Of a stretch of 58,935 bases of DNA, positions 608 to 24,979 are shown in pieces (the first letter of the stretch is position 1; every line of letters begins with the position of its first letter). Location of the stretch: positions 1 to 58,935 of IMG/VR virus record IMGVR_UViG_3300005918_000002; one strand, written 5' to 3'. Both the position numbers and the translations under genes were made by a program. The notes under the pieces were generated by a model that was not told where the DNA came from, did not search any database, and was given only the letters and a program-made list of their open reading frames with translations. The DNA comes from a virus (taxonomy: Duplodnaviria; Caudoviricetes).

Positions 608-608
608 A

Positions 609-8282: not shown

Positions 8283-8307
8283 CCGTATATTACAGAGGAG
8301 AATTAAA

Positions 8308-8640
8308 ATGAGAGTAATCGAATTAGAAGACATGGGTGACGAGCAGTATAAGGGATTATTGAAAGCTGGCAGAGTGGAGGCCGTCTTTGGATATAGCCAT
8401 AAAAGCGGTAGGATCTTTACACCGACCATTCACTTTCTAAACGTCCATACATTATTTGGATTGCTTGAACCGGCAACTTTAAAAGAGTTTTCGGCAAACA
8501 TTGATGCCGAGGATATGATCATGCAATGCCAGCAGATCCTTAAAACGGATGAGGAGCAGGAAGCGGATGCGGCAGAAGCATTTGAGGATCGCATGGGTGC
8601 AGAGGCAAAGATTCAGGAGGCACATTTTGGAAGCAATTAA
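8308..8640 (+). CDS. Hypothetical protein
   Basis: GAGGAG RBS; acidic C-terminus. Confidence 0.55.
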   Translation: MRVIELEDMGDEQYKGLLKAGRVEAVFGYSHKSGRIFTPTIHFLNVHTLFGLLEPATLKEFSANIDAEDMIMQCQQILKTDEEQEADAAEAFEDRMGAEAKIQEAHFGSN

Positions 8641-9056
8641 ATTCCAGATAATTTCAGCCATGATCGTAGAAAACGATAAAACCCTGATAGTTGTTAAGAT
8701 AAGAATAGGATCAGGCCTTTTAAAGGCGTCCGTTAGGTGTAGTAGCAAGAACCCCTTTTTTACTATCCATAAAATCCATGAGAACAAAACAGGCATTTCG
8801 TGGAAACTGCTTCAACGTTTTAATGAGATACCAGAATCAGAAATTATTGAAAAAGTTTTTGATTTCATGGTTGAACGCGACCGGATTAAAAATTATTATG
8901 TGTCTCATTATAAAACCCGAAAAGTAGGATTAAATAAACCCACCTCCTAGCACTCCGCAAAATCTCCGGTACTAACATAGGCCGGAGATTCCCCCGGTAA
9001 GCTGGTGGATATTTAAAAAAGAGAGGATGTACGGTATGAATATAAAAGGGGATATT

Positions 9057-9911
9057 ATGAAAGGTGTTAAAGTTCTTGAAATAGCACCAAGGGGAGAAGT
9101 CGGCGGCGTTATAAGTGAAGCGCCTTTTGAGAATTTTAGAACCTCATTTGCGTGTGGAATGAAAGTTGAATTACCAGAAAATTCAGACTGGCAAGCGATC
9201 AGGGAAGAATTGTTAAACGATAATCAGCAAGCCTTAATGTTCCGGTTTGAATTATTAAAGAATAAATTGAAAGCCGATTACATTCAAAAACAAATGGCCG
9301 GGATTAGATTCAGGGAAAAAGAAGGCAGGCAATATCCTTCCGTTACTTCTATTCTGGGATTTGATAAAGATTTTTTCATCAGTGATGTTGACCTGACTCA
9401 ATACGGCGCACGGGGTAGCATTGTTCACAAACTGATTGAGCATTATTGTGATAACGGAAAATGGCTTGACCTTAAGGAACTCGTAGGCCTTTACCCGGAT
9501 TTCCGGGAGGATGCCAGTATCATGCACCGGGGAAATTTGGGATTAACCCTTGAAACATTATCATATGAAAAATTCATGGAAGTACACGAAAAGGATTTTG
9601 AATTTGGGATAAAGGAAATTATTATTTTTAATGATAAATATCTTTATTCCGGACGTACTGATATGATAGGTAAATACAAGGGCAAGAAATCAATCATTGA
9701 TTGGAAAAGCGGAGTGGGTGATTTCCCACAACTGGCAGCCTATGCGAAGGGTGACGACATCGAAGGTATCGAACAACTGGTAATTTGTCCTGTTGGCAAA
9801 ACGGATAACAAGAGCGGGGTAATGAAACCCAGGGTGACAATAAATATCGAAAAAGAATTCAACACATTCTTAAAAGCAAGGGCAAAATTTGCCGAAAGAT
9901 TTGGAATTTAA
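9057..9911 (+). CDS. PD-(D/E)XK nuclease-like exonuclease (recombination module)
   Basis: YPSVTSIL, RGSIVH, YSGRTD, IIDWKSG and QLAAY motifs. Confidence 0.8.
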   Translation: MKGVKVLEIAPRGEVGGVISEAPFENFRTSFACGMKVELPENSDWQAIREELLNDNQQALMFRFELLKNKLKADYIQKQMAGIRFREKEGRQYPSVTSILGFDKDFFISDVDLTQYGARGSIVHKLIEHYCDNGKWLDLKELVGLYPDFREDASIMHRGNLGLTLETLSYEKFMEVHEKDFEFGIKEIIIFNDKYLYSGRTDMIGKYKGKKSIIDWKSGVGDFPQLAAYAKGDDIEGIEQLVICPVGKTDNKSGVMKPRVTINIEKEFNTFLKARAKFAERFGI

Positions 9912-9924
9912 ACAGGAGATTAAA

Positions 9925-10230
9925 ATGTCAAAACCAATTAAAAAAATATCAGTAGGAAAAGTTCAAGCCGCCGTCTGGCAGGGAGAATATAATGGGAAAC
10001 CGACATATTCATTCAGTTTCCAGAAAAGTTTTAAAGATAAGGCTTCCGGGGAATGGAAAAATACAACCTTCTTTTCCCCTACAGACCTGAGAGACCTGGC
10101 AATTCTCGTAAACAGTCTATGTGCAAAACAGGTAAAAGAATTTATACCAAATCAGTCAACCGAGACCGCACCACCGCCGCCACCTGTTGAGCAAAGTCAA
10201 ACGCCCGCAGAAGACGATCTACCATTTTAA
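9925..10230 (+). CDS. Single-stranded DNA-binding-like protein
   Basis: Aromatic beta-rich core (KSFKDKASGEWKNTTFF), Pro-rich linker, acidic EDDLPF tail; follows the exonuclease. Confidence 0.65.
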   Translation: MSKPIKKISVGKVQAAVWQGEYNGKPTYSFSFQKSFKDKASGEWKNTTFFSPTDLRDLAILVNSLCAKQVKEFIPNQSTETAPPPPPVEQSQTPAEDDLPF

Positions 10231-10400
10231 AATTTGTAGTATCAAAAATGGTAAACTGTATCGACATGCTGGTGTTACGGCTCCCGGCATTAAAACCGAT
10301 GAAGACGGTCGTATATTAGTAGCTGATTGATAACGGCCTATTCAACGAAATAAGCCAGATTAAGAAAAGCCCTAACCTTTGTACCTAAAAAGGACGAAAG

Positions 10401-10805
10401 ATGCAGAAACCGATCAATCCGCTTGATACGGCCCGACAATACACACACCGTTGCACTGTATGCGGTAATTTCTTCTGCCGGGCTGATAAAAGGCGGGTTT
10501 TATATTGTGGTGATCCTTGCAGAGACGGGGCGGCGGCAGAACGGAAACAACAAAAACTCGAAAAGAAACGTGCCGCCGCCCGTAAAAGATTTGAAAAGTA
10601 TTTCGTCGCTCATCCTGATTACTGGAAACTGATTAAGGTACTTGCGAAATGGCGACTTGTGGAACATGGCTCATATTCCATCCGGGATATTTTCGGAGTT
10701 ATGCGACACGAATACAATGATCAGATTAGTAATAACTGGTCTAAGTTTTATAAGGAAAAACTTGATTATGAATTTAACAAGGGGAGTGAATCATGCGAGA
10801 AATAA
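10401..10805 (+). CDS. Zinc-finger-containing hypothetical protein
   Basis: CTVC...YCGDPC. Confidence 0.5.
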   Translation: MQKPINPLDTARQYTHRCTVCGNFFCRADKRRVLYCGDPCRDGAAAERKQQKLEKKRAAARKRFEKYFVAHPDYWKLIKVLAKWRLVEHGSYSIRDIFGVMRHEYNDQISNNWSKFYKEKLDYEFNKGSESCEK

Positions 10806-11215
10806 AGTTCAGGGGTAAACGACAAGATAATGGTAAATGGATTTATGGATACTATAGATGTATTCAATGGGAGATCGATAAATATTCTCATGAAATCATT
10901 AACGGAAATAGCTTCTTTAGGGTTGATCCCGAAACAGTAGGACAGTTTACAAATAAAATAGATACACATGAAAAAGATATTTATGAAGGTGATAAGGTTT
11001 CATTTACTGTATTTGACGCTATGGGTAGCGATAATCTATTTGAAGGTATTGTAAAATTTGCAGGCGGACAGTGGCAAATATGGAACAATGCTATAACAGA
11101 ATTTTATGGACCAGATGGAGCGTTTGATTTGAACTGGGTAGTTAGTCAAGATGATGAAATTGAAATTATCGGCAATATCCATGAGAATAAAACTCACGAG
11201 GAGAAAGTATCATGA
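10793..11215 (+). CDS. YopX family protein
   Basis: MREIKFRGK...ETVGQFT...DIYEGD...EIIGNIHEN. Confidence 0.85.
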   Translation: MREIKFRGKRQDNGKWIYGYYRCIQWEIDKYSHEIINGNSFFRVDPETVGQFTNKIDTHEKDIYEGDKVSFTVFDAMGSDNLFEGIVKFAGGQWQIWNNAITEFYGPDGAFDLNWVVSQDDEIEIIGNIHENKTHEEKVS

Positions 11216-11634
11216 TTTATATATGTATAGGCATATTTGTTGTCAGTCTTGTTTTAGGATTTTCGATAATGGCAATATTGGCAAGTGGAAGCATTGCCGA
11301 TAAAGCACAAGAGCTTGGACACGCAAAACATGTCCTTGCTAAAATTCTACGCTGGTACGAATCCAAAGCCCTACGAGATTCATTCCCGAAGGAAGAAGCG
11401 GAAGATATCTTATATCATGTTTGACCACTGCGAAATAATCAATGCCATTTGTCCGTTCTGCGGGATCGCAGAAGGCAAGCACTTTTGTGGAACTATGCGA
11501 AGCGGTTGTACAGACATCGATTACATGATCAAGAATGAAATCGGCTGCCCAAAGATTACCGGGAAATATGGTAAACTGATTAAACATAAAAAAAAAGTTG
11601 TTAACGATGGTGATTTATTTAAAGGGGATTTATA

Positions 11635-13285: not shown

Positions 13286-13576
13286 ATGACAAAAGCAGAA
13301 CAAACCCGACGGGAACAGATGGAGGATATTATTATTCGCCTGTCCGTTCTAACTGAAAAAGAATCCGCCAGACTTTGGGGAATGGCCGGAAAGTTCTGGA
13401 ATGAATACGGGTACGCCGAAACTATGCGGGTGCTGGCTGGAATTTGGCCGGTGAAACCCATTGCATATATTTGTGGAGTATTAAAATCGGAAGAACTGAA
13501 AACAGTTGACCTGTCAACCATGCAGCTCCCGCAAGAGGTGTATGATAATCTTGGTGGGTTTGGAGGTGTAAAATAA
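13286..13576 (+). CDS. Hypothetical protein (possible replication accessory)
   Basis: GAGG RBS; KPIAYICGVLK motif. Confidence 0.45.
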   Translation: MTKAEQTRREQMEDIIIRLSVLTEKESARLWGMAGKFWNEYGYAETMRVLAGIWPVKPIAYICGVLKSEELKTVDLSTMQLPQEVYDNLGGFGGVK

Positions 13577-13578
13577 TG

Positions 13579-13642
13579 CACTAACGTTGTAGATATAATT
13601 GGTGGATGGTTTTCACCATCCATTTCATATCGCTTGTTATGT
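13579..13642. mobile_element. attC-like site A
   Basis: CACTAAC...GATATAA/TT-C-ATATC...GTTATGT around a TGGATGGT/ACCATCCA hairpin; near-identical to site I. Confidence 0.75.
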
Positions 13643-13670
13643 TGCACAATGAAAGAACCGGAGATTATGT

Positions 13671-14486
13671 ATGATTGAAAGTAACGATAAAAGAGATTCT
13701 GTGGGTGGGGGTAGTTCCCTTTCCCCTGCTTGTACTCTTTTGCTCGGCGATTGTTTGGAAGTAATGAAGGATATACCAGACGGATCAATAGATGCGATTA
13801 TAACAGACCCGCCTTATGGAACTACTGCTTGTAAATGGGATAGTATTATTCCCTTAGAACCTATGTGGGGGCAGTTAAAGCGGGTCATCAAGCCGAACGG
13901 TGCTATCGTTATGACAGCAAGCCAGCCGTTCACCACAACCCTGATAGCGTCTAATATGAAGATGTTTAAGTATTGCTGGGTGTGGGATAAGCGAGTAGCA
14001 TCTAATTCTCAGCTTGCTAAGATTCAGCCACTAAAGATTCACGAAGATATTTGTGTTTTTGGTGTCGGCAGAATCACATACAATCCACAAGGTCTTACTG
14101 ATTGCAATATAAGCAAGAGTAATAAGAACAGAAGTAAAGGAGTTGGTCACGTTGGCAGTGAATCAAAAAGGGAAAGTTTTACCCAAACAAAAACAGGCTA
14201 TCCTAAGTCAATCCAAAACTTTAAGCCAAATAATATCGGCAAAATGCACCCAACTCAAAAGCCAGTAGCCCTAATGGAGTATCTAATTAAAACATATACT
14301 AACGAGAATGAAACAGTATTAGATTTTGCAATGGGAAGCGGAACAACTGGCGTAGCGTGTAAGAATCTAAATCGTAATTTCATAGGCATAGAAAAAGAAG
14401 AGAAGTATTTCAACATTTCAAAGGATCGTATTTCCCTAATCCCTAAAGGGGGTGGGAATTGCGATCAAACAGCATTAGCAATATAA
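13671..14486 (+). CDS. DNA N6-adenine/N4-cytosine methyltransferase (beta class)
   Basis: GDCLEVM, DPPY, HPTQKP and LDFAMGSGTT motifs. Confidence 0.93.
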   Translation: MIESNDKRDSVGGGSSLSPACTLLLGDCLEVMKDIPDGSIDAIITDPPYGTTACKWDSIIPLEPMWGQLKRVIKPNGAIVMTASQPFTTTLIASNMKMFKYCWVWDKRVASNSQLAKIQPLKIHEDICVFGVGRITYNPQGLTDCNISKSNKNRSKGVGHVGSESKRESFTQTKTGYPKSIQNFKPNNIGKMHPTQKPVALMEYLIKTYTNENETVLDFAMGSGTTGVACKNLNRNFIGIEKEEKYFNISKDRISLIPKGGGNCDQTALAI

Positions 14487-14538
14487 CCATTTCATAACCT
14501 GCCATGTTTCACCGGTCAGGTTGATGAACAGGTTAGAA
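14481..14538. mobile_element. attC-like site B
   Basis: ATATAAC..TTCAT-AACCTG-CC / GG-T-CAGGTT-G-ATGAA..GTTAGAA; MTase stop codon lies within TAAC. Confidence 0.85.
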
Positions 14539-14589
14539 AAATAATAAAAAAGAATGGTAAATATTAATCACAACAGGTGGAGGGGCAAA

Positions 14590-14874
14590 ATGAAATTCAG
14601 TATGAGAATTGGCGATTTTGAATTGAAATCATGTAATCAATATTTAACATCACTTGGTGAACACACAACAGCAGAAATAGTTCAATGGTCAAAAGATGAG
14701 ACAACGGGGAGGCTTTATTGTTGGACTATTGCATGCTGGCGTGAAGACAAAGAGGGATTTGATTTATATTTTATAGATAGTAGACCGTTTGAATGTGATG
14801 CCGAAACATTTTTTAAATTAGCAAAAACGGGACAAATATTTTTAACGGAATATCTGGAAAAGAAGTCAAGTTGA
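14590..14874 (+). CDS. Hypothetical protein
   Basis: GGAGGGG RBS; flanked by an 18-bp imperfect direct repeat. Confidence 0.55.
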   Translation: MKFSMRIGDFELKSCNQYLTSLGEHTTAEIVQWSKDETTGRLYCWTIACWREDKEGFDLYFIDSRPFECDAETFFKLAKTGQIFLTEYLEKKSS

Positions 14875-15135
14875 CATTAATCATAACAGGTAGGGAGGTG
14901 AGATAATTTGAGCTATATAATAACTGCGGATGTCTATTTAGACGAAGAAGAGAATTCATATGGTGAAATTGTAAAAGTAAATGCACGGATTTTATCTAAA
15001 CAGGGATCTTGTATAACTTTTGATATTGCCGGAGATCATTCGAGAAAACGAAAAAGAACAAAGATGTTGTGTGATACACTTATAAATGCAGGGTTTTATT
15101 CATTTAATATACGGCATTCTTATTAAAGGGCAAAT

Positions 15136-16368
15136 ATGACAACAATTTTTGACAATCCTCCACCCCAAGCAATTGATGCGGAAATGTCCGTGCTTGGATC
15201 AATACTGCTTGACAATAAAGTAATAAATATTGTAAAGCTATTACCAAAGCATTTTTACAGAACTTCGCATCGCCAGATATTTCAAGCTATGTTAAACATG
15301 GATAACCAGCCTATTGATATTATCTCGCTTGAGGAGCAGTTGAAAAAAGAAAAGTTGCTTGAAGAAATTGGCGGTTCATATTATCTAACAGAGCTTGCAG
15401 AATCCGTTCCCTCTGCGGCCAATGTTTATGAACATGTGAAAATCGTAATGGAAAAATATACACTAAGGCAAATAATTGAACTGGCATATAACGCAACTAA
15501 GGAAGCGAACGACCTTAATGAGTCAGGCGCAATAATAGATTCATTCTGTAATAAACTTGTTGAGCTATCAATTGCAGAGGTTAGGTCTGATCACATATCA
15601 GAGGCCTTGCATGAATTTAATGATTATGTAGACAGGAAACAAGCTGGCGAAATTGTAGACGTAAAAGTTCCGTTCATTGATAATTTTGAGGAAGGTGAAG
15701 TTATTGTTTTGGCGGCACGTCCCAGTCACGGTAAAACTTCGCTTGCTACCCAGATACTTTTTGAGTGTAATGTTCCGGCTGGTTTAATATCAATGGAAAG
15801 CACAAGAAAAAAAATAGCCGGTAGGATGTTGGCGCAACTTTCGCGAATTGATTCTAAAAAATTAAGTAGGGGAATGCTTGAGGGTGCAGACGTTGCGAGT
15901 GTAATTCAGGCATCCACCGAATTGGCAGAAGCACCAATATATCTTGATTTTGCATCTGATAAGATTTATGAAGTATTGGCTACTGGTCATAGATGGATAA
16001 AAGAACACAATATAAAATTATTAATCATTGATTATCTTCAGCTGATACGTGGAGGTAAAAGCGAAAGTAAGAATATAGAGATTGAAAATATTTCCAGGTC
16101 TTTGATGAGATTTGCAAAAAGAACCGGTGTACCCTTATTGATTTTATCACAATTAAGCCGGGATGGAAAGGTTAAACCGGGGCTTGAACATTTACGAGGT
16201 TCAGGAGCAATTGAGCAGGATGCCGACAGGGTTATATTTATTCGTCGACTTCACATCGAAAATGTCAGTGAGGTAATAATTGAAACGGCGAAATATAGAG
16301 ATGGTGAAATCGGCGAAATACTATTACATTTTAGGAAGGAAATGATGTTGTTTAATAAAGATTTTTAA
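15136..16368 (+). CDS. dnaB: Replicative DNA helicase DnaB-like
   Basis: PPQAIDAEMSVLGSIL N-terminus, AARPSHGKT, IIDYLQL, LSQLSR and LRGSGAIEQDAD motifs. Confidence 0.95.
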   Translation: MTTIFDNPPPQAIDAEMSVLGSILLDNKVINIVKLLPKHFYRTSHRQIFQAMLNMDNQPIDIISLEEQLKKEKLLEEIGGSYYLTELAESVPSAANVYEHVKIVMEKYTLRQIIELAYNATKEANDLNESGAIIDSFCNKLVELSIAEVRSDHISEALHEFNDYVDRKQAGEIVDVKVPFIDNFEEGEVIVLAARPSHGKTSLATQILFECNVPAGLISMESTRKKIAGRMLAQLSRIDSKKLSRGMLEGADVASVIQASTELAEAPIYLDFASDKIYEVLATGHRWIKEHNIKLLIIDYLQLIRGGKSESKNIEIENISRSLMRFAKRTGVPLLILSQLSRDGKVKPGLEHLRGSGAIEQDADRVIFIRRLHIENVSEVIIETAKYRDGEIGEILLHFRKEMMLFNKDF

Positions 16369-16411
16369 AGTGAAAATAAAACTTGTTTTTTAATAAAACC
16401 TAGGGGTGTAA

Positions 16412-16633
16412 TGATAACGTTCAAAGATAACCTGCCTTGCGGTGGTCGGGCATAATTGAAAGGATTTAATGATATGGATATAGTTGATGCACTTCAAGAG
16501 TATTTAGACAAAACAAATCTTGGGAATAATTTACTTTTAGATGATTTATTGTGTTCATCGAGGGATGTTATCAAAGAGTTGAGGGAGGCGGGGCAAGGTG
16601 AGTTGGGCGGTAATCAAGATGGGGTGGTTATTG
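16412..16633. mobile_element. attC-like site C (long loop, degenerate right arm)
   Basis: Left arm TGATAACGTTCAAAGATAACCTG matches site F from AAC onward; CCTTGC/GCAAGG pairing; right box GTTATTG at 16627. Confidence 0.5.
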
Positions 16634-16785
16634 ATATAAAGACGGCATTTGCTTTAGCGCACCCGAATATGTTTAGACCTGAACCGGTGTATGGTTGCAA
16701 GGCATGTAATCGACAAGTCGTACTTGAGAGTGACGACTATTGCCCAAAGTGTGGTGTAAAAATAACTTGGGTGGGAAAATCTTGA
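16474..16785 (+). CDS. Hypothetical protein with C-terminal zinc ribbon; starts inside the loop of site C
   Basis: CKAC...YCPKCG. Confidence 0.55.
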   Translation: MDIVDALQEYLDKTNLGNNLLLDDLLCSSRDVIKELREAGQGELGGNQDGVVIDIKTAFALAHPNMFRPEPVYGCKACNRQVVLESDDYCPKCGVKITWVGKS

Positions 16786-16789
16786 TTCC

Positions 16790-16865
16790 GAATAACAGTT
16801 ATATTCACCGGCGGAAGGCTGGGACGTGGGCGGAAGGGCCGTCCGTGTACAATATTTGGTTATCT
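16790..16865. mobile_element. attC-like site D
   Basis: GAATAAC..ATATTCACCGGCGG / CCGTCCGTGTA-C-AATAT..GTTATCT. Confidence 0.65.
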
Positions 16866-16902
16866 TTTTCGCCCCTAATCCCTAAGTTAATCAATAAATG
16901 TC

Positions 16903-16931
16903 TTGACATTAACAAATGATATATGTATATT
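16903..16931 (+). promoter_or_regulatory. Sigma70-like promoter
   Basis: TTGACA-N17-TATATT. Confidence 0.7.
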
Positions 16932-16940
16932 AAAATAACG

Positions 16941-17176
16941 AAAAATTGAGGGGAAAACGTAATTGAGATCATTGGGAAATTTGGACGCGCAACTTGTTGA
17001 AAGGTTATAGTAGCGAGTAGCAGCCATGTGCCATAGGCAATCTTGGCCCCGTATGGGTAGCAAATTAACCGGAAGGACAAGCTCTGTGAAGACTGGATAG
17101 CAGCCGACGAACAACTCGGAAATTCCCCAGCGAACGAGCCAACACAAAATGGTACTGAGGACACCCCTCAATTTTT
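16941..17176 (+). ncRNA. Candidate structured ncRNA (~236 nt), family unassigned
   Basis: Begins about 10 nt after the -10 box; perfect 13-bp closing stem AAAAATTGAGGGG/CCCCTCAATTTTT; GC-richer than flanks; no + strand ORF in the ORF track. Confidence 0.55.
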
Positions 17177-17191
17177 ATTAAGGAAAATTAA

Positions 17192-17341
17192 ATGCCAGCA
17201 CCTAAAAAGAAGCATCCAAAACAGCCATTAGGAATTCGCCTTCACCCTTTCATAATTAAGCGGTTAAGAAAAGAGGGTAAATATAATGCACTTATTCAGC
17301 GTTTATTATGTGAATATTTCGGTATAGACCTTGGCGAATAA
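17192..17341 (+). CDS. Ribbon-helix-helix-like small DNA-binding protein, 49 aa (not in ORF track)
   Basis: MPAPKKKHPKQPLGIRLHPFIIKRLRKEG...LCEYFGIDL; paralogous to the ORFs at 19900 and 21591. Confidence 0.6.
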   Translation: MPAPKKKHPKQPLGIRLHPFIIKRLRKEGKYNALIQRLLCEYFGIDLGE

Positions 17342-17487
17342 ATATAACGACCCAAATAACCGGCTTTGCCGGGAAGGGAATTTAAAATGAGTTTATTTGA
17401 CGAGGCTACCGAAAGAATGTTAGACGACGAAGAGAGAGAGAGGATATTGGCGGCGGAGCAAAGTCCGTGTTCATTACCGTGTTCTAC
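17342..17487. mobile_element. attC-like site E (ORF start in loop)
   Basis: ATATAAC..AAT-AACCGG-CTTTGC / GCAAAG-T-CCGTGTT-C-ATT..GTTCTAC. Confidence 0.75.
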
Positions 17488-17695
17488 AGGGGATAGTCGG
17501 GACGGGAAGGGTGGCCTTAAAAATGGTGGGTGGTTTAAGAATGAACGCGAAAGTAAGGTGCCGTGCAGGAATTGCCGTTGTCCACATTGGGGTGACAAAT
17601 ACAATCAAAGTTGTGGTGCGTCTGATATAATAAGTGAAAAATGCGCAATGATTTGTGAGGAATACATACCGAAAAGATTGGTGGGGGATTTTTAA
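17387..17695 (+). CDS. Cys-rich hypothetical protein starting in the loop of site E
   Basis: GGGAAGGG RBS and ATG 17387; reads through the right arm of the site. Confidence 0.55.
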   Translation: MSLFDEATERMLDDEERERILAAEQSPCSLPCSTGDSRDGKGGLKNGGWFKNERESKVPCRNCRCPHWGDKYNQSCGASDIISEKCAMICEEYIPKRLVGDF

Positions 17696-17699
17696 GTGT

Positions 17700-17921
17700 G
17701 TAGAACGTTCAAAGATAACCTGCGAAATGGCGGGGGAAGGAATTGGAAAAGATGGATTTAGATAAAAAATATTATACCAGTGAATACATTGAATGTAATA
17801 TACTTCAACTCGTAAAAATGGAACCAGAGTGGGCGGCTTATAGGATACAAGCAGGAGAGAAAGCAATTGAACAGCTTGAGGGTGAGGCGGGGATTTCGTC
17901 AGGTTCATCTAGTGGTTCTAC
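17700..17921. mobile_element. attC-like site F (ORF start in loop)
   Basis: GTAGAAC..AGAT-AACCTG-CGAAAT / ATTTCG-T-CAGGTT-C-ATCT..GTTCTAC. Confidence 0.85.
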
Positions 17922-18219
17922 AGTGGGGGGCGGTGTGGTGATGGATGGCATTAAAAAATTCATGGGTGGAAGGGCTTGTTTAAAGATTGGCGATGGATCA
18001 ACACTTATCAGTGAAGCCCATTATAAGGACAGTATTGATAATGTCCTCGTATTGACGCAATATCACGAGTGTAGAAAAATAGGGTCAGAGCTAAAAGGTT
18101 CTGCCGGCAACCCTGCTACCAACAACGGCACAGTACTTGAAATAGTATTTACAAACTCCACTTCTGTACAAGTTGTAATAGACGCACTAGTTAAAATAAA
18201 AGCGGCCCTTGGGGAATGA
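17752..18219 (+). CDS. Hypothetical protein starting in the loop of site F
   Basis: ORF reads through the right arm (GISSGSSSGST). Confidence 0.55.
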   Translation: MDLDKKYYTSEYIECNILQLVKMEPEWAAYRIQAGEKAIEQLEGEAGISSGSSSGSTVGGGVVMDGIKKFMGGRACLKIGDGSTLISEAHYKDSIDNVLVLTQYHECRKIGSELKGSAGNPATNNGTVLEIVFTNSTSVQVVIDALVKIKAALGE

Positions 18220-18231
18220 ATTATTTAATGT

Positions 18232-18289
18232 GTAGAACCACTTCATAACCTGCCACGTTTCACCGGTCAGGTTGATGAACATGTTAGAA
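18232..18289. mobile_element. attC-like site G
   Basis: Near-identical to site B; GTAGAAC...GTTAGAA. Confidence 0.85.
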
Positions 18290-18310
18290 AATCGGAGAGG
18301 AGTAATTATT

Positions 18311-18505
18311 ATGAGTTGCTGGACAAAAGAAGAACTGGAAAACATGCTTGAAGATGTTGTTAATGAGTTAGAGTTGTCCGGTTCTATATTAGAAGAACAT
18401 GGGCCATTAGGAACACCGCCAGCTGAATTGGTTAGGCTTGTATTGGATGAGAAGGATAAAATCATATCAGCACAAAAAGCCGGATTAAAAATTATATTTT
18501 CTTAA
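18311..18505 (+). CDS. Hypothetical protein (cassette G-H)
   Basis: GAGGAG RBS and ATG 18311. Confidence 0.55.
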   Translation: MSCWTKEELENMLEDVVNELELSGSILEEHGPLGTPPAELVRLVLDEKDKIISAQKAGLKIIFS

Positions 18506-18506
18506 C

Positions 18507-18730
18507 ATATAACATTGGGCTCACCGATTTAGCGGTGGGGAAAGGATAGAATACTATGAGCGTACCAATTAGACATTTAAAACAAGCTTTGGCAATTATG
18601 GGTGTTTCAACCCCAGAAAGTCTTGAGGAATTTAGACAAGATGAATTAAAATGGATTAACAAGCTTGTTTTTACCGTAGTAATATTTGGGGATGAAGGGG
18701 CAAAATCCGCCGTGCAGCCAGTGGTTAGCC
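18507..18730. mobile_element. attC-like site H (ORF start in loop)
   Basis: ATATAAC..GGCT-CACCGATTTAGC / GCAAAATCCGCCGTG-C-AGCC..GTTAGCC. Confidence 0.65.
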
Positions 18731-18897
18731 AAGACGGAGCGGCGGCAAAGGTTGATATTATTCGTCCACTTATTGATGATACCATGAAATATCACAGAAC
18801 GGCGAACAGTAGAGCGAGTAAATTACTAACTGCATTGAATATTAGTGTTGATGCAGTTAAGGAGATACTTAAAGAGTGGGTTGATCGGAGTCAGTAA
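18556..18897 (+). CDS. Hypothetical protein starting in the loop of site H
   Basis: AAGGA RBS; reads through the right arm (AKSAVQPVVS). Confidence 0.55.
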   Translation: MSVPIRHLKQALAIMGVSTPESLEEFRQDELKWINKLVFTVVIFGDEGAKSAVQPVVSQDGAAAKVDIIRPLIDDTMKYHRTANSRASKLLTALNISVDAVKEILKEWVDRSQ

Positions 18898-19056
18898 GAA
18901 GAGGTAAACCATGAAAAACCTTATAAGAAAAATCGGTGAAACAATAATGTTTATCATTGAGTTTTTAGTAACTCTGTTAGGATATGGCCTGTTTGATTTT
19001 AAAGATGGGTTAGAATCTTATGGTAAACCAAAGTATATTAAAATACGGGGGACGAA

Positions 19057-19545
19057 ATGAAAAGGCAAAATTTATTTAAGGCGGCCATTTGCAGTTTTAT
19101 CCTGGCGGTAATTGCAATCATTCTTTTTTCCGGATGCCGTGACGATACGGCAGTTTGGAAACGTATTGCAGAATTGGAAAAGAAGCAAGTCGCAACGGAG
19201 GCCGCTCTTGACAGTGTGGTTTTCAAGGCGGAATTGAGACGAGAAATAAATACAGTCTGGCTCGGAATCGACGGGCTGGATGAAGAAATTATTGACATTG
19301 AAACCCGGCAAGCGGCAATAATGAACCGTCTTGCAAAGTTGGAAGTTGATACCGGGGGAATTATACTTATTTGGAATGAGAATAAATTCGATCCCCGGCG
19401 GCCAGTATACGGATACCGGATTTATTTAGGAAATCACTTGATCTGGGCAGGTCAGGACACATCCGTAACGCTGGAAAATTTAAGGTATTCGGCGTATAAT
19501 TCTGCCGGGGAATCGTTTGGTTTGGAGAAGGTGAGGATAAAATGA
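19057..19545 (+). CDS. Putative lipoprotein
   Basis: Signal peptide with LFSG-C lipobox; Fn3-like fragments YGYRIY..SAYNSAGES. Confidence 0.6.
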   Translation: MKRQNLFKAAICSFILAVIAIILFSGCRDDTAVWKRIAELEKKQVATEAALDSVVFKAELRREINTVWLGIDGLDEEIIDIETRQAAIMNRLAKLEVDTGGIILIWNENKFDPRRPVYGYRIYLGNHLIWAGQDTSVTLENLRYSAYNSAGESFGLEKVRIK

Positions 19546-19607
19546 ATATTTTTTCACGCCTAACCCCTTGTTTCTGTTGCCCTCTTTGAAAATAGTTGAA
19601 AAAAGAC

Positions 19608-19636
19608 TTGACTTTAATCTAAATGATTAGTATATT
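19608..19636 (+). promoter_or_regulatory. Sigma70-like promoter
   Basis: TTGACT-N17-TATATT; shares AAAAAAGACTTGACTTT context with the 6744 promoter. Confidence 0.7.
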
Positions 19637-19899
19637 TATAGTGTCATGAGAGACCAAACTAAAAAAAACGAGGAAAAGAAAGTGACAGCGATACAACAAG
19701 AATTGAAAAGATATGCAGAGATAAGAGCGCAATTATATCAGATTAAAGGTTTTGGGGGGACATCAATTAACGCTGCTATATCTTATGCCGTTGCTGATAT
19801 GATTAATGAACTCAATAATTTTGCAACCAATAAGGTTGAATATTTAAAAAGCGAAAACGAATATCTTTTAGGGTGTATATCGAAATTAAAGGAAGTAGC

Positions 19900-20268
19900 A
19901 TGAGAGGCGGCAAACGAGAAGGGGCCGGACGCAAGCCCAAGCCCGATAAAAAGAAGCCCGTATCTTTTCGCCTTCATCCTAAACTGATTGAACGGTTGAA
20001 GAGAGAAGAAAACCAAGCAAGTGCAATTGAAAAGGCATTGTGCCGATGGTTCGGTATAGACCTTGATGAGCAAGAGACAGAAAAAGAGGGCAAGGCAATG
20101 AAGATAGTTAGAATTAATGAAATTATTTTAAGGGCCAATACTTATCCAACATATTTTGTAGATTATAAGATAGGTAAGGACTGTTGGAAAAATTATGGTA
20201 GTTCTTGTGTCTATGCGGCTGCATTAGAAATGAAAAAACAAATAAATTCCGGGGAAATAGTACTATGA
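19900..20268 (+). CDS. Ribbon-helix-helix-like DNA-binding protein, apparently fused to a second small domain
   Basis: RGGKREGAGRKP...VSFRLHPKLIERL. Confidence 0.65.
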   Translation: MRGGKREGAGRKPKPDKKKPVSFRLHPKLIERLKREENQASAIEKALCRWFGIDLDEQETEKEGKAMKIVRINEIILRANTYPTYFVDYKIGKDCWKNYGSSCVYAAALEMKKQINSGEIVL

Positions 20269-20904
20269 TTTTTAGAGTTAAATTTAAGATAGATGGAAAT
20301 GAAAAATCCGCAATTGAGCCAGAATGTGGATGGTTTTTAATTGACCAACAGGGAAAGTTTTATAGTTATGGGCCATGTTCACCTGTAAAACCTGTTGAAA
20401 GTTGCATTAAAGAAATAGAGCCTTTAATATTAATAAACAATGAGTACTTGACAATTGAAGAGATAGAAGAAAGGATTAATAAATTTTGAATATTTCGAGA
20501 TAGACCTTGATGAATAAAAGATGAGGATTGAATGAAGGTTATAAAGTGTAAAAAATGTGGTATGACCTTGTGGCTCAAGGCTGATAGTAAAAAGAAATGC
20601 CACATTCCTAAACGATGTTCATTTTGTGGAGAATATTACATCTTGATGAATAAAAGGATGAAAGAGCAAGTAACACAATGATTCTAAATAATATTATATT
20701 TAATAATCGGTTATTTCGTATATTCGACAAAAAGAAACAGACCTACTGGGAAATTCTCTGCCGGATTGATTATGACACAGAAGAGATAACCGTTATAAAC
20801 AGGGGTGACGAAGACGAAACAACTGTTTTTTTTGGAGATGTATTGATTCATGGTGATATTTCAGCAACCTTGATAAATAAACAAATAAAAACGGGGAGTT
20901 TAAA

Positions 20905-21285
20905 ATGAAAGTCAGAATGAGCGCGCAAATGATTGATGATAATAACATCTTGATTCAACTTAATTTCTCAGGAAAAGGCGTTGATAGCGCTGAAATGATT
21001 GGAAGCGAAGCAAAAAAATATCAAGCAGAAGTACAAAAAATTGATTATGAGGATCAAATGAAAGTTACAATCAGAACCGCAGACATTAAACGGCACGGCA
21101 CAACTATTTTGCTTGGCCAAAAACGAACGGCAACCGAAGGGCGTGAGGGTAACCTGAAAACACTTAACATCCGCGAGAATGGTAAACACATTAAATCTTT
21201 TAGAGGCAGTTCTCTTGGTTTTTGTAATCCTCTTACAGATAAGGATAAGGATTATTTGGCCTCGCTCGGAAGCAATATTGAATAA
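20905..21285 (+). CDS. Hypothetical protein
   Basis: GGGGAG RBS; 126 aa. Confidence 0.5.
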   Translation: MKVRMSAQMIDDNNILIQLNFSGKGVDSAEMIGSEAKKYQAEVQKIDYEDQMKVTIRTADIKRHGTTILLGQKRTATEGREGNLKTLNIRENGKHIKSFRGSSLGFCNPLTDKDKDYLASLGSNIE

Positions 21286-21590
21286 AGACAACCAGACGGT
21301 TTTAAATTTATGCCGCCGCAAAATATCTGGAAGCTACTAAAGCACACTTGTAAAAAAGGAGACAAAATGGGACAGGATGAAACTTATTTTTATGACGGGC
21401 AAAAAGTAGAAGCTCTTCATTTTGAAGATGGGACACACTGGACCGTTGGCCAGTCAGGGATTGAGAAGATTATTGTAATCATGGAAAACGGAGAGATGGC
21501 AAGTGTTGTGTGGTTTGGCGTTTATAAAGACGGAAAATTAACATTTAAACAAAATCGTAAGTTTGTTAGCCACGCAACTATGGTTAAAAT

Positions 21591-21782
21591 ATGAGGGGCG
21601 GCAAACGACTAGGGGCTGGACGCAAACCGGCCCTTCACAAAAAGCGGATGGTATCTTTTCGACTTCATCCAAAATTGATTGAACGGTTGAAGATGGAAAA
21701 TAATCAGGCCAGTGCAATTGAAAAGGCATTATGCCAATGGTTTAATATAGATCTTCAACAAGGAGACAATGAGCAACTTTGA
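21591..21782 (+). CDS. Ribbon-helix-helix-like DNA-binding protein (paralog of 19900)
   Basis: RGGKRLGAGRKP...VSFRLHPKLIERLK..NQASAIEKALC. Confidence 0.7.
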   Translation: MRGGKRLGAGRKPALHKKRMVSFRLHPKLIERLKMENNQASAIEKALCQWFNIDLQQGDNEQL

Positions 21783-22208
21783 TAAAATGACCAGAAATCC
21801 ATCCACTGGCAAATTACAAAAAGCTAGTTGGATAGATAACTATTTTGGGAATCATATATACGGAGTTCAATTCCCGGATGGTAAAATCTGGAATGAAAAA
21901 GATATTAAAGATATTGAAGGGGATGTAGAGGAGATTACAATAATTGAACATGATGGGTTCCATTGCGGTGTCTGTGGTAAATGGGTAGCCAGGAAAAAGA
22001 AAGTATCTCAGTTTGCTGTTCAATGGTGGGACATCTGGGGACTATGTGACAGGTGCGATAATTGCAGGGGAGGGGATTTAAAATGAGAAATGTAATAAAG
22101 TGTACAAACGAAATTCATGTGATATTAAAAAAATATAAGTGTAAGAATGGTGATAAGTGCAGTAAATGCGGCAATACTGAATTGAGTAGTGATGAAACTT
22201 TTTAGCAT

Positions 22209-22272
22209 GCATAACGTTGGAGATATAATTGGTGGATGGTTTTCACCATCCATTTCATATCGCTTGTTATGT
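22209..22272. mobile_element. attC-like site I
   Basis: GCATAAC...GTTATGT; near-identical to site A. Confidence 0.8.
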
Positions 22273-22309
22273 TTTTCACCCCTATAACCAAAGAATGGAA
22301 AGGATTAGA

Positions 22310-22870
22310 ATGAAGGTGTTAATTGCTTGTGAATATTCCGGTGTAGTGCGTGACGCATTTATTAAGAGAGGCCACGATGCAGTGAGTTGTGACATTTTAC
22401 CAACAGAGAGATCCGGGCCCCATTATATGGGTAATGTTTTACCCCTATTGGGTGAAGGGTGGGATCTTATGATTGCTCATCCACCGTGTACAAGATTATG
22501 TAACTCAGGTGTTTGCTGGCTTGACAAAAGGAACCTTTGGGACGAAATGAGAGAGGGGGCCCGGTTTTTCAAAACTTTACTAAATGCGGACATACCTAGA
22601 ATTGCTATAGAGAATCCTATACCACATGGTTATGCGGTGAGAGAGATTGGTAAAAAATATGATCAGATTATACAGCCTTGGCAATTCGGGCACGGGGAGA
22701 CAAAGGCCACTTGTCTATGGCTAAAGAACTTGCCAAAATTAGAACCAACTAGAATTGCTAAAGGAAGAGAGCAGCGATTGCACATGTTGCCGCCTTCTAA
22801 AGATAGGGCGAAGTTGAGGAGTAAAACGTATTTTGGTATCGCTGACGCAATGGCAATTCAATGGGGTTGA
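22310..22870 (+). CDS. Short phage-type DNA cytosine methyltransferase-like protein
   Basis: VLIACEYSG, SCD, HPPC and IENP motifs (C5-MTase motifs I/IV/VI-like); GIADAMAIQW C-terminus. Confidence 0.8.
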   Translation: MKVLIACEYSGVVRDAFIKRGHDAVSCDILPTERSGPHYMGNVLPLLGEGWDLMIAHPPCTRLCNSGVCWLDKRNLWDEMREGARFFKTLLNADIPRIAIENPIPHGYAVREIGKKYDQIIQPWQFGHGETKATCLWLKNLPKLEPTRIAKGREQRLHMLPPSKDRAKLRSKTYFGIADAMAIQWG

Positions 22871-22888
22871 CCTATACCCTGTGAATAA

Positions 22889-22946
22889 ATATAACGCCCA
22901 TTATCAGCGGCGGGCGTTTATCGTCCGCTGCATAATTTTGTTATAA
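22889..22946. mobile_element. attC-like site J
   Basis: ATATAAC..ATTAT-CAGCGG-CG / CG-T-CCGCTG-C-ATAAT..GTTATAA. Confidence 0.85.
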
Positions 22947-22962
22947 TTGGAGGGAATATAAA

Positions 22963-23148
22963 ATGAATGAATACGATGTAAAAAGATTAGCTTTGATTTT
23001 GGCCATACAAGCAGACATTGAAGGAATGAAAATTGAAAACAAGGTTAGGTTGAGTAACAATCAATCACCAGCATATCCCGATGGTGAATTTATGATGAAA
23101 TCGGAAGAATTAAGAGAACTGGCCTATAAACACAATGAACAATTATAA
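22963..23148 (+). CDS. Hypothetical protein (cassette J-K)
   Basis: GGAGGG RBS; stop codon within the TAAC of site K. Confidence 0.65.
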   Translation: MNEYDVKRLALILAIQADIEGMKIENKVRLSNNQSPAYPDGEFMMKSEELRELAYKHNEQL

Positions 23149-23222
23149 CGTTGGTGCTTACCGGCAAATAGGCGGTAAGGAATTGGCTGTGACGGGTTGC
23201 CGCGTACAGCACTTTGTTAGCC
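23143..23222. mobile_element. attC-like site K
   Basis: TTATAAC..GTGCT-TACCGGCAA / TTGCCGCGTA-C-AGCAC..GTTAGCC. Confidence 0.8.
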
Positions 23223-23280
23223 TTAGAGAATGTGGCGTACAGAGCCACGCTTATGAACGGCGTACACGAGGGAAGATGAC

Positions 23281-24237
23281 TTGAATATGTTAGACTTATT
23301 TTCAGGAATCGGCGGATTTCGATTAGCAGCGCAAAGGGTTTGGGGGGAATCTCTAAACTGTAAATGCATGGTAGAGCTTGACCCGTTCTGTCAAAAGGTA
23401 CTTATGAAAAATTGGCCAGGAGTGACAATACATGACGACATTAAAACATTCAAGGGGAGCGGATGGGGAACAATTGACATTCTTACCGGGGGGTTTCCAT
23501 GCCAACCGTTTAGTGTTGCCGGGAAGCAGGGAGGCCGGGAGGATGACCGTTACCTCTGGCCTGAAATGCTCCGCGTTATTAAAGAAGCAAAGCCCCGTTG
23601 GGTTGTTGGGGAAAATGTTACTGGAATCATCAATCTGGCACTCGACGACGTGCTTACTTCGTTGGAAGGTGAGGGGTACGAGACAGAAACGTTTATTATT
23701 CCAGCTTGCGGTGCGGACGCCAAACACAGAAGGAACCGAGTCTGGATTGTTGCCAACAATGAGGGGTCGTTTGACGGGCAACCTATCCCCAAAGAGGTGT
23801 GGGGACAAATTCAACAACTTAGAATCAGTGTTGAGTCGGCAAATGTGGCCAACCCCAAGTGTAAACGAGCCGGGGTGGAAATACAGGACACCAGTAGACA
23901 AGAATGGAAATGCACCAACCCATCACAATCAAAGATGGTACGACAAGGAAACGGGGCGGTTAATGCAGAAAGGATTGGAGCATGCAGTGAAGATGTGGCC
24001 GACAATGACCGCTTGCGAATGGAAGGGGAGAGGCCCGAACAGCAAACAAAAGGGATTAACGAACGCAATTGGATGTACGGGTGGGAGCCTGAACCCTCAG
24101 TGGGTCGAGTGGCTGATGGGATACCCTCAAGGGTGGACAGACTTAAATCACTCGGAAACTCAATAGTGCCGCAAGTGGCTGAACGAATTTTCTGGGGGTT
24201 GCGCTGTGTAGAAGAGGCATTGTGTACGCAAGGCTAA
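23281..24237 (+). CDS. DNA (cytosine-5)-methyltransferase, large subunit
   Basis: DLFSGIGG, GGFPCQPFS, ENV, HRRNRVW and LGNSIVP motifs. Confidence 0.93.
   Translation: MNMLDLFSGIGGFRLAAQRVWGESLNCKCMVELDPFCQKVLMKNWPGVTIHDDIKTFKGSGWGTIDILTGGFPCQPFSVAGKQGGREDDRYLWPEMLRVIKEAKPRWVVGENVTGIINLALDDVLTSLEGEGYETETFIIPACGADAKHRRNRVWIVANNEGSFDGQPIPKEVWGQIQQLRISVESANVANPKCKRAGVEIQDTSRQEWKCTNPSQSKMVRQGNGAVNAERIGACSEDVADNDRLRMEGERPEQQTKGINERNWMYGWEPEPSVGRVADGIPSRVDRLKSLGNSIVPQVAERIFWGLRCVEEALCTQG
23432..24166 (+). CDS. Nested alternative-frame ORF, putative second C5-MTase subunit (motif IX-like)
   Basis: 244 open codons inside the MTase gene; GGAG upstream; LNPQWVEWLMGYPQGWT C-terminus. Confidence 0.65.
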   Translation: MTTLKHSRGADGEQLTFLPGGFHANRLVLPGSREAGRMTVTSGLKCSALLKKQSPVGLLGKMLLESSIWHSTTCLLRWKVRGTRQKRLLFQLAVRTPNTEGTESGLLPTMRGRLTGNLSPKRCGDKFNNLESVLSRQMWPTPSVNEPGWKYRTPVDKNGNAPTHHNQRWYDKETGRLMQKGLEHAVKMWPTMTACEWKGRGPNSKQKGLTNAIGCTGGSLNPQWVEWLMGYPQGWTDLNHSETQ

Positions 24238-24291
24238 CCACTTCATAACCTGCCGCTGTAGTCCACGGTCAGGTTCATGAACAGGTTAGAC
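24232..24291. mobile_element. attC-like site L
   Basis: GGCTAAC..TTCAT-AACCTG-CCG / CGG-T-CAGGTT-C-ATGAA..GTTAGAC; MTase stop codon within TAAC. Confidence 0.85.
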
Positions 24292-24556
24292 AAAATAAAG
24301 GAGAGTAAATATTTGATAAAGCCACATGTCTTCCGAGTAGTTCACGGCAAGGGTGAATTACTAGAGGGAGGAGAAGTTACCAGGTATCGGGGAATGAATT
24401 TCCATACCTGCAATATAAAAAGTAAAAAGAATATCTGCCAGTGGTGTGGCGAGCTTACGGATAACGAGAGGTTTTGCACAACCGGCCACATGTGGAAACA
24501 TCGGAAAAAGGTGAAACGTTACGCAAAGAACGTAACATAAAAAACGGATTGTTATA

Positions 24557-24979
24557 ATGAAAGAACTCCCATTTTCAAAACAGAAACAAGTTGGACGGGG
24601 TGCTATAGACGTAACGGAATATCGTAATATGGTATGCAAAGAAGCTGATCTTCAACGGCAAGCAGAGGAGTATTTACAGGTTCAAGGTATACCATTTATC
24701 AGGGTACCTGATGCGATATACAAAGCGATTTTTTCAAGCCGAACAATTAAGCCATATATTAAAGCGTTGATTTCAAGATTCATTAAGGGTTTGCCGGATC
24801 TTATAATTTTAGACCCCGCTGGCCGCTGGAATAGGGCCTGTTGTATTGAATTAAAATCGGCAACTGGAAAATTATCGCAGGGCCAAAAGAATTTTGCTAA
24901 ACGAGTTAATGTAGTTGTCAAGCGTAATTTTGAAGATTTTGTAAAAGAAGTTGAAGAGTTTTTAAACGGGAAGGAATAG
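24557..24979 (+). CDS. VRR-NUC domain nuclease
   Basis: EADLQ, GLPDLI and IELKSATGKLSQGQ motifs. Confidence 0.85.
   Translation: MKELPFSKQKQVGRGAIDVTEYRNMVCKEADLQRQAEEYLQVQGIPFIRVPDAIYKAIFSSRTIKPYIKALISRFIKGLPDLIILDPAGRWNRACCIELKSATGKLSQGQKNFAKRVNVVVKRNFEDFVKEVEEFLNGKE

Follow-up and report, generated by a model that had tools for sequence, protein, structure and literature searches.

Can a phage that encodes no integrase carry its genes as integron-type cassettes? This question is raised by a region of a salt-lake phage (Duplodnaviria; Caudoviricetes) represented by IMGVR_UViG_3300005918_000002, an IMG/VR virus record that is complete at 58,935 nt and was analyzed over its whole length (referred to here as the window). 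Between positions 13576 and 24294, 12 attC-like sites (A to L), each opened by a left box and in most cases closed by a right box, separate DNA methyltransferase genes and small open reading frames (ORFs). In integrons, an integrated cassette begins and ends with sequences that are complementary to each other. The original prediction held that the same applies here, i.e., that the right box of a given site matches the left box of the following site, usually better than its own left box, and it read this pattern as a footprint of cassette mobility. The end complementarity is real and statistically secure. We consider it probable that the units between the sites are integron-type cassettes in a complete phage genome without an integrase, of the kind described in phages as clusters of attC sites lacking integron integrases (CALINs), with a host recombinase acting in trans.

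Complementary ends of adjacent units

The 12 sites were positioned by coordinate and form three short arrays (A-B, C/D-H, and I-L) with backbone genes between them. AAC ends all 12 left boxes, and GTT begins each of the 10 right boxes that could be placed (C and H are without one). Eight of the right boxes adjoin a compact hairpin; in E and F, the right box is found within an ORF, 133 and 209 nt 3' of the left box, respectively. The sites are given below with the positions of the left-box C and the right-box G; bulge positions are numbered inward, starting at the outer end of the right box, and fold z scores refer to comparison with shuffled sequence.

13576-13649, + strand: site A (type 1); C 13585, G 13636; first of array 1; non-canonical bulge pattern
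14478-14545, + strand: site B (type 2); C 14487, G 14532; fold z -3.4; scanner bulges G16 and T23
16409-16455, + strand: site C; C 16418; F-like 5' arm, no right arm found; fold z +0.4
16787-16873, + strand: site D; C 16796, G 16859; GC-rich interior, no single clean hairpin
17333-17488, + strand: site E (long loop); C 17348, G 17481; ORF 17387-17695 begins within the loop
17697-17922, + strand: site F (long loop, 222 nt); C 17706, G 17915; ORF 17752-18219 begins within the loop
18229-18292, + strand: site G (type 2); C 18238, G 18283; match of the geometry scanner
18496-18550, + strand: site H; C 18506; short hairpin ahead of the next start codon
22205-22283, + strand: site I (type 1); C 22215, G 22266; first of array 3; fold z -3.8
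22881-22949, + strand: site J; C 22895, G 22940; fold z -2.8; bulges C16 and T23; T-rich tail
23140-23224, + strand: site K; C 23149, G 23216; branched interior with two hairpins; fold z -3.1
24230-24294, + strand: site L (type 2); C 24238, G 24285; last of array 3; fold z -5.0; match of the geometry scanner

Complementarity was gauged with a gapped, triplet-anchored score, for which each right box was compared to all 12 left boxes. Adjacent pairs scored 8.5 (A>B), 3.0 (B>C), 10.5 (D>E), 8.0 (E>F), 8.0 (F>G), 8.5 (G>H), 10.5 (I>J), 10.0 (J>K), and 9.0 (K>L). The left box of the next site ranked first among the 12 in eight of these nine pairs, and the mean score was 8.44 for adjacent pairs, 5.00 for the two boxes of one site, and 4.32 for all other pairs. 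In the permutation test of adjacent versus non-adjacent pairs that the original prediction had proposed, none of 20,000 permutations reached the observed adjacent mean, which bears out its central claim. When E>F and I>J, which are near-repeats of F>G and D>E, were removed, the next left box ranked first in six of the remaining seven pairs, again with 0 of 20,000 permutations reaching the mean.

Most of the individual pairings named in that prediction were recovered as well. The 10/10 pairing of J with K was reproduced in full (the ends match at 10 of 10 positions), and A/B, D/E, I/J, K/L, and the near-match of G with a stretch just ahead of H all ranked first at the scores given above. For E/F and F/G, the 8/8 pairing stands, but it represents one 8-mer pair seen twice in two paralogous sites. 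The right-box 8-mer has only two copies in the window (0.77 expected), at 17481 and 17915; both lie upstream of a left box that holds the complement, and the complement is found four times in the window. Because the boxes of F itself also pair 8/8, adjacent and own pairing are indistinguishable for this site. The C/D pairing did not hold up: its hexamers occur 26 and 30 times in the window, which is not above chance, and the pair therefore carries no weight. B>C, at 10th rank, violates the rule; a block containing the DnaB gene lies between these two sites.

In a circular cassette, the R boxes of the single attC site are paired, which after integration corresponds to a right box that matches the next left box, as found here. 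Units were also circularized in silico, a check suggested along with the prediction. Composite sites with the adjacent left box folded better than the native sites, by 2.7 kcal/mol if the crossover is placed in the left box (nine pairs) and by 3.6 kcal/mol if it is placed in the right box (seven pairs). With a non-adjacent left box, by contrast, the folding energy changed by +0.73 (SD, 1.95; n = 101 composites), and 2% of them reached the adjacent mean. The further claim that such a pattern is not expected of terminators is likewise consistent with the data: the region contains 8 terminator-like sites versus 9.7 expected, the sites do not show the GC-rich stem and T run of intrinsic terminators, and J alone among the 12 has a T-rich tail.

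Fold and polarity of the sites

According to Nivina 2016, the bottom strand of attC, which recombines, has AAC on one arm; the extrahelical bases of the opposite arm, usually G16 and T23/24, are separated by a 6-bp stem. For the window, we employed a geometry scanner in which AAC must be followed by a short spacer and by stems of 4, 6, and 2 bp that end in a loop, and GTT must close a return arm with two single-base bulges flanking the 6-bp stem. The scanner returned six matches on the + strand and none on the - strand, compared to a shuffle mean of 0.27 (30 shuffles). Five of the six matches correspond to sites B, F, G, J, and L; the bulged base at position 23 is T in each, and that at position 16 is G or C (C16 and T23 in F, where the R box pairs 7/7). 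The sixth match, at 29146-29255, differs in spacing and is probably due to chance.

Folded as single-stranded DNA, sites A, B, I, J, K, and L are more stable than their shuffles (z -2.1 to -5.0), and C, D, E, F, and G, taken as short pieces, are not. Once the right arm of F is included, the fold joins its distant arms into the 222-nt hairpin. The arm pairing of E was judged by eye, and its minimum-energy fold favors a local hairpin. When distal right arms were sought, none was found for C, and the one candidate for H, near 18929-18955, is weak. The type 2 sites B, G, and L are 93% alike, and the type 1 sites A and I are 98% alike over 62 nt. B, G, and L were used to build a narrow covariance model (R1), which gave them 89, 86, and 82 bits, respectively, on the + strand and 19, 10, and 24.5 bits on the - strand; it was rejected as an attC detector for being too specific, in that it finds B, G, and L, J weakly (17 bits), and nothing else convincing. 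Rfam, which has no attC family, gave no match in the window. In one contig of metagenome run X8, the outer arms of a type 1 site are kept and the apical hairpin is replaced by 24 other letters (~13600-13625 and 22228-22250), so a related strain carries a variant top of this site.

The orientation of the sites relative to the genes was assessed with a positive control. In 3 kb around In2 of plasmid R100, the sole scanner match is the attC of aadA1, and its geometry lies on the strand opposite the gene, whereas in the phage (sites B, F, G, J, and L) it is the coding strand that has this geometry. A walk along the main stem on the gene-sense strand gave the same division: aadA1 and the bacterial array described below (L166) carry the two single-base bulges on the 5' arm, whereas B, F, and L, as well as three sites (s2, s9, and sZ) of another phage contig, G001, carry them on the 3' arm. 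The arrangement is not general, since the internal pattern differs in the cultured Flavobacterium phage vB_FspS_snusmum6-1, where the sites have a 4-nt bulge on the 5' arm rather than two single bulges on the 3' arm. The strict scanner gave no match in the snusmum6-1 locus or in Polaribacter phage P12002L. Among the papers listed by full-text literature searches, there was no earlier description of reversed polarity or of start codons inside such sites.

Cargo, genome context, and related arrays

The units delimited by the sites, and the backbone block that interrupts them, are as follows.

13636-14487, + strand: unit A>B; N6/N4 DNA methyltransferase ORF 13671-14486 (PF01555, E 1.7e-33); end score 8.5
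14546-16408, + strand: backbone genes rather than a cassette; DnaB helicase 15136-16368 (DnaB_C, E 9.6e-54) and two small ORFs
16859-17348, + strand: unit D>E; promoter-like site, candidate structured RNA (~16941-17176), and ORF 17192-17341, ribbon-helix-helix (RHH)-like; end score 10.5
18283-18506, + strand: unit G>H; ORF 18311-18505, no PHROG match; end score 8.5, rank 1
22266-22895, + strand: unit I>J; DNA methyltransferase ORF 22310-22870 (phrog_757, E 1.5e-58); end score 10.5
22940-23149, + strand: unit J>K; ORF 22963-23148, no PHROG match; end score 10.0
23216-24238, + strand: unit K>L; C5 cytosine DNA methyltransferase ORF 23281-24237 (PF00145, E 1.4e-42); end score 9.0

The three long, cleanly bounded units thus carry DNA methyltransferases of three kinds (N6/N4, phrog_757 type, and C5), and the other units hold small ORFs without family matches. 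In E and F, an ORF begins in the loop of the site and reads through its 3' arm; the sole family match of the F>G ORF (to a PHROG) starts at residue 67, just past the right box. In D>E, the promoter-like site (16903-16931) matches at 11 of 12 positions and is followed by a non-coding stretch of ~236 nt (16903-17176 with the promoter-like site) that has a long closing stem and, at its end, a terminator-like hairpin with a T run. This stretch gave no Rfam match even at E<=1 and is a candidate for a cassette-borne small RNA. The RHH-like gene of the same unit is one of three small paralogs (17192-17341, 19900-20064, and 21591-21755), two of which share 79% identity; a remnant at a gene junction (20487-20518) is a copy of the 3' end of one of them.

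An exact direct repeat of 90 nt at the ends of the record (1-90 = 58846-58935) identifies it as a complete phage genome, either terminally redundant or circularly assembled. DNA of this phage is present in 18 salt-lake metagenome runs. Nearly all long ORFs are on the + strand, and GC skew is positive almost throughout. The genome encodes a large terminase (TerL) candidate, to which all cultured-phage TerL proteins are <30% identical among the matches listed, a Mu-F-like head protein, DnaB, a PD-(D/E)XK nuclease (9027-9911), and a VRR-NUC nuclease (24557-24979). The gene for the last lies shortly 3' of the final site, L, with one small ORF (24277-24540) intervening. Elsewhere, 7671-8282 encodes a pentapeptide-repeat protein through 15-nt tandem repeats, and 519-3749 encodes a 1,076-aa, probably fibre-like protein with a sub-cutoff Pfam match (22.7 bits; cutoff, 23.8) to the N-terminal receptor-binding fold of clostridial neurotoxins, which we take as a lectin-like fold and not as evidence of a toxin. 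No close phage relatives were found: the DnaB query and two site motifs gave no match in the viral contigs searched, a set from which records close to the window may be missing.

The same layout does occur in other phages. Eighty IMG/VR loci were gathered with the C5 methyltransferase as query, and the strict scanner matched 2 of the 80, always on the gene strand. One of them (locus L031) belongs to G001, an IMG/VR phage contig of 90.6 kb rated 58% complete, in which neither a PF00589 match nor a Y1 transposase was found. The coding strand of G001 has two arrays with 13 left and 11 right boxes. The left box of the following site is the best of the 13 at every one of the 10 junctions of G001, with mean scores of 9.95 for adjacent pairs, 4.41 within sites, and 3.79 for other pairs, and no permutation out of 20,000 reaches the adjacent mean. 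In these sites, a start codon and a short leader usually lie in the loop.

Judged by sequence comparison, G001 is otherwise unrelated to the window phage, with only methyltransferase genes in common. Of 139 ORFs on the + strand of the window, tblastn found matches in G001 or in a further genome, G002, only at four methyltransferase genes (five ORF rows, two of which overlap in the C5 gene). TerL had no match in either genome, and DnaB had none in G001 and only a weak partial match in G002 (E 1.4e-5, 29% over ~95 residues). The A>B methyltransferase has a 62% identical homologue in G001, likewise behind a folded site. Homologues of the K>L enzyme, 66 to 68% identical over residues 1 to 160, are found between folded sites in G001 and without sites in G002. 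By eye, the C5 methyltransferase homologue of G001 is interrupted at ~3880-4320 of L031, and its frame resumes after the interruption; the intervening segment holds a promoter-like motif and a 125-aa, Cys/His-rich, homing-endonuclease-like ORF.

A cruder detector, of unit chains with 10-nt matching ends, was also used. This detector is noisy, giving chains of 3 to 5 on shuffled window strands (40 strands), so only chains of at least 6 were counted; L047 and L062, with chains of 4, were dropped as within the noise, and L149 and L163 gave chains of 7. Chains of six units were found in L041 (IMG/VR) and in snusmum6-1 (L104, 209-3221), where four units are exact and the sites, of 99 to 137 nt, lie around methyltransferases. 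In P12002L (L112, 29150-32300 and 37180-39270), the same layout and matching ends around methyltransferases were recognized by eye. No tyrosine recombinase was found in any of five further array-bearing or candidate records, three of which are 40 to 64% complete. A metagenome scan with the type 2 motif gave 17 loci that by eye are nearly all chance matches inside unrelated sequence. Among them, L009 shows a single resemblance only, and L001, a 1,229-nt metagenome contig, looks by eye like a fragment of an integron-type array with four folded sites; one of these has the type 2 inner motif, and the genes of the fragment, being on the opposite strand, have the classical polarity.

A bacterial counterpart came from 80 bacterial or archaeal loci that encode an I>J methyltransferase homologue, of which one, L166, was examined in detail. 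This Chloroflexi metagenome-assembled genome has an array of eight units (5986-11365), seven of them with exact 10-nt ends, and sites ~115 nt apart. Its first unit is the I>J methyltransferase homologue, and a 282-aa tyrosine recombinase is encoded ~1 kb beyond the array. The recombinase scores 90 bits against PF00589, 107 bits against its best NCBIfam model, of XerA type (cutoff, 220), and 21.6 bits against the integron-integrase model (cutoff, 265). By these NCBIfam scores, the enzyme classifies as Xer-like and not as a canonical integron integrase. L166 has classical polarity: on the gene-sense strand, its bulges are in the 5' arm.

Mobility and competing explanations

Direct evidence of mobility is thin and consists of three observations. 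In G001, one 282-nt unit is present twice (280/282 identical), behind two unrelated hairpins; the identity begins 3 nt before the GTT of the right box and ends 17 nt into an arm common to four G001 sites. The homologous methyltransferase units are ordered differently in the window phage and G001. In two metagenome runs, contigs join 22283 to 22871 and skip the I>J methyltransferase ORF, although this signal is weak, with a short side of 25 nt. Two other joints (15197>22257 and 17773>25160) were set aside for their short sides, and most joints in metagenome contigs were discounted as lying inside methyltransferase genes and stemming from homologues of other organisms; parts of the window that the contigs do not cover are uninformative. 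As to the side of the crossover, the edges that paralogous sites have in common give conflicting indications. B, G, and L share the interior and the right box and not the left box, which fits a crossover in the left box. A and I share the left box and the interior, and this pattern, together with the start of the G001 duplicate at the right box, fits the opposite side.

Several known systems provide a measure for these arrays. With integron attC sites they share an imperfect hairpin closed by AAC and GTT, with two bulges 6 bp apart opposite AAC (in the window, at 5 of the 12), one or a few genes between sites, and a unit whose start box is complementary to its end box; as in chromosomal integrons, site families are homogeneous within a genome. 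They differ from integrons in that no integrase, attI, or cassette promoter (Pc) was identified in the phage, the spacer is shorter, the polarity is reversed relative to aadA1 of In2, some sites measure 146 to 222 nt with the start codon of the next gene in the loop, and essential phage genes, that for DnaB among them, interrupt the arrays. L166 is alike in its matching-end units and its I>J methyltransferase homologue and differs in having classical polarity and its own recombinase. The arrays are best placed with phage CALINs. In the main text of Qi 2023 (PMC9892861), these are described from virulent phages with methyltransferase cargo and sites that IntI1 can recombine; IntI1 recombined 5 of the 6 phage attC sites tested, one of them from P12002L. 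The window phage resembles those phages in being of virulent type without an integrase and in carrying attC clusters with orphan DNA methyltransferases as cargo. It differs in extent: the same text gives two predicted attC sites in P12002L and at least two per CALIN, compared to 12 sites in three arrays here. By our own scanner (not IntegronFinder), five canonical sites lie within 10 kb with no integrase, F and G ~530 nt apart and J and L ~1.3 kb apart, as in a CALIN. A complete integron, with an IntI gene, attI, and Pc adjoining the array, was not found in the genome, in keeping with the lack of a PF00589 match.

The integron reading offered by the original prediction is supported by the AAC/GTT triplets, the bulge geometry, the 10/10 junctions of G001, and L166; excision itself we infer. 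A number of observations weigh against it. As to the sites, the canonical bulge geometry is present in only 5 of 12 (B, F, G, J, and L), with E added by eye; A and I (bulges on both arms), K (branched), and D (ill defined) fold non-canonically, and C and H, without a right arm, consist of a left box and a short hairpin only. The spacer is 2 + 2 nt in B, G, and L rather than the usual 5 to 6, and the length is 58 to 80 nt in 8 of 10 complete sites, with E (146 nt) and F (222 nt) exceeding the usual 57 to 141 nt. The bottom-strand geometry that classical cassettes have on the non-coding strand is not found there, which is opposite to aadA1 and L166, and the + strand folds slightly better in only 6 of 10 sites, a signal too weak to be used for polarity. 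As to an enzyme, six-frame searches gave no tyrosine recombinase in the complete genome (PF00589, 0 matches at E<=1) and no serine recombinase (PF00239) or Y1 transposase (PF01797) in the window; Pfam searches of 40 ORFs and PHROG searches of 20 ORFs did not find a recombinase either. As to movement, the metagenome contigs showed no circle or empty site directly, the edges of the 22283/22871 joint are 18 and 25 nt inside the unit and not at the triplets, and identity in the G001 duplicate sets in at the right box and not at the left box predicted from the bulges. Methyltransferase homologues also occur without such sites, in G002 and Pseudoalteromonas phage C7. Finally, site families are genome specific: the four copies of the G001 arm motif are all in G001, and the site motifs of the window phage match no other viral contig and resemble a site in 1 of the 17 loci of the metagenome scan. 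There has therefore been no recent exchange of whole cassettes between these phages, and the sites evolve with each phage, in the manner of attC sites of chromosomal integrons, rather than being imported with each gene.

The hairpins might instead act in RNA, in processing or in translation control of a long phage transcript, with the next start codon in an open loop and the unit ends pairing within a processed mRNA. This would suit the position of all array genes on the structure-bearing strand, the start codon in the loop and the coding 3' arm of E, F, and most sites of G001 and snusmum6-1, and the slightly better folding of the gene-sense strand (6/10 sites in the window phage, 8/11 in G001, and 4/5 in snusmum6-1). 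It would leave unexplained why AAC...GTT is invariant across unrelated site families and phages, why the bulges fall at exactly 16 and 23 with a 6-bp stem, and why a bacterial tyrosine recombinase goes with the same layout. In addition, pairing of 8 to 15 nt across 200 to 1,000 nt of mRNA would be weak, and a phage site of the same kind is recombined by IntI1 according to the main text of Qi 2023 (PMC9892861). We regard an explanation in RNA as unlikely, although the hairpins could have an RNA role alongside one in DNA. We give a similarly low probability to shuffling by homologous or copy-choice recombination at conserved hairpins without a site-specific recombinase. Exchange of this kind has reportedly been proposed for the promoter-stem-loop (PeSL) cassettes of T4-type phages, in which small accessory genes bounded by repeated stem-loops are said to be shuffled as units, much as here; the exchange reportedly relies on homology between the repeated promoter/stem-loop sequences, which, unlike the sites in the window, are said to have neither AAC/GTT boxes nor complementary ends. 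Homologous exchange would need no encoded recombinase, and it could draw on arms common to sites within a genome (B/G/L and A/I; four copies in G001), in one of which the G001 duplicate ends, and on the VRR-NUC and PD-(D/E)XK nucleases that the phage encodes. However, exchange in the interior of hairpins does not predict that right box N equals left box N + 1, and the upstream edge of the G001 duplicate lies between unrelated hairpins, with no homology available.

That 8- to 15-nt terminal inverted repeats adjoin hairpins in each unit could also point to single-strand transposons of the IS200/IS605 kind or to palindrome-associated transposable elements (PATEs), or to miniature elements with terminal inverted repeats, in each case with a transposase in trans. 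We find this very improbable. No two units need have the same inverted repeats, and a transposase that recognizes a particular sequence could not bind all of these differing ends; neither the window phage nor G001 has a Y1 transposase, and the ends of IS200/IS605 elements are not known to be complementary to each other. Chance likeness among AT-rich intergenic terminators would account for the C/D pair, with its common hexamers, and for the T-rich tail of J. As an account of the pattern as a whole, it is refuted by the permutations in two phages (0/20,000 in each) and by the terminator counts given above, with a T tail in only 1 of 12 sites, and its probability is negligible.

Our verdict is a reversed-polarity, head-of-gene variant of the cassette layout that belongs with phage CALINs, for which the following mechanism is proposed. 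Lacking a recombinase of its own, the phage must depend on a host enzyme in trans, and this would be a structure-specific tyrosine recombinase, either IntI or a Xer-like array recombinase. Strand exchange inside the conserved triplet of two folded sites would free the intervening unit as a circle or insert such a circle; from the bulge geometry on the coding (+) strand, the crossover would fall in the left box. In the putative circle, the two end boxes of the unit would meet to form the paired base of a single site, which integration would split between the ends of the unit, and right box N would then match left box N + 1 better than its own left box. Each cassette would consist of a site followed by a gene, with the site at the head of the gene, as a mirror image of the classical order of gene and then site. 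The likely use is the swapping of orphan DNA methyltransferases that shield phage DNA from host restriction.

More tentatively, the arrays may be phage-adapted, mirror-image integron cassettes, rather than stray cassettes of bacteria, that reshuffle anti-restriction methyltransferases in several phage lineages by means of a host tyrosine recombinase that may or may not be a classical integron integrase, a possibility that we put forward without favoring it. In such a form, a folded site would head each gene, often holding the translation start and a short leader in its loop, and it would lie on the coding strand, which is also rich in G over C genome-wide and may be the more exposed one during transcription or replication. 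If this is true, the genome-specific sites imply that cassettes would be made inside phage lineages.

To judge from the literature searched, the demonstration of this footprint for phage arrays, the reversed polarity, the start codons within sites, and the length of the arrays appear to be new; in the passages of Qi 2023 (PMC9892861) consulted, we found no end-complementarity rule for phages, no reversed polarity, and no start codons inside sites. The reversed polarity, the start codons in loops, and the missing integrase are testable differences from bacterial integrons, and bench tests are feasible with the Flavobacterium and Polaribacter phages, which are in culture and have the same layout. 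The findings touch on the origin of integron cassettes and on whether they have users besides bacteria, both of which are open questions. In a virulent-type phage with 12 attC-like sites and methyltransferase cargo, counter-defence genes look like exchangeable cassettes, and if the mirror-image reading is true, such arrays would bear on how integron cassettes arise.

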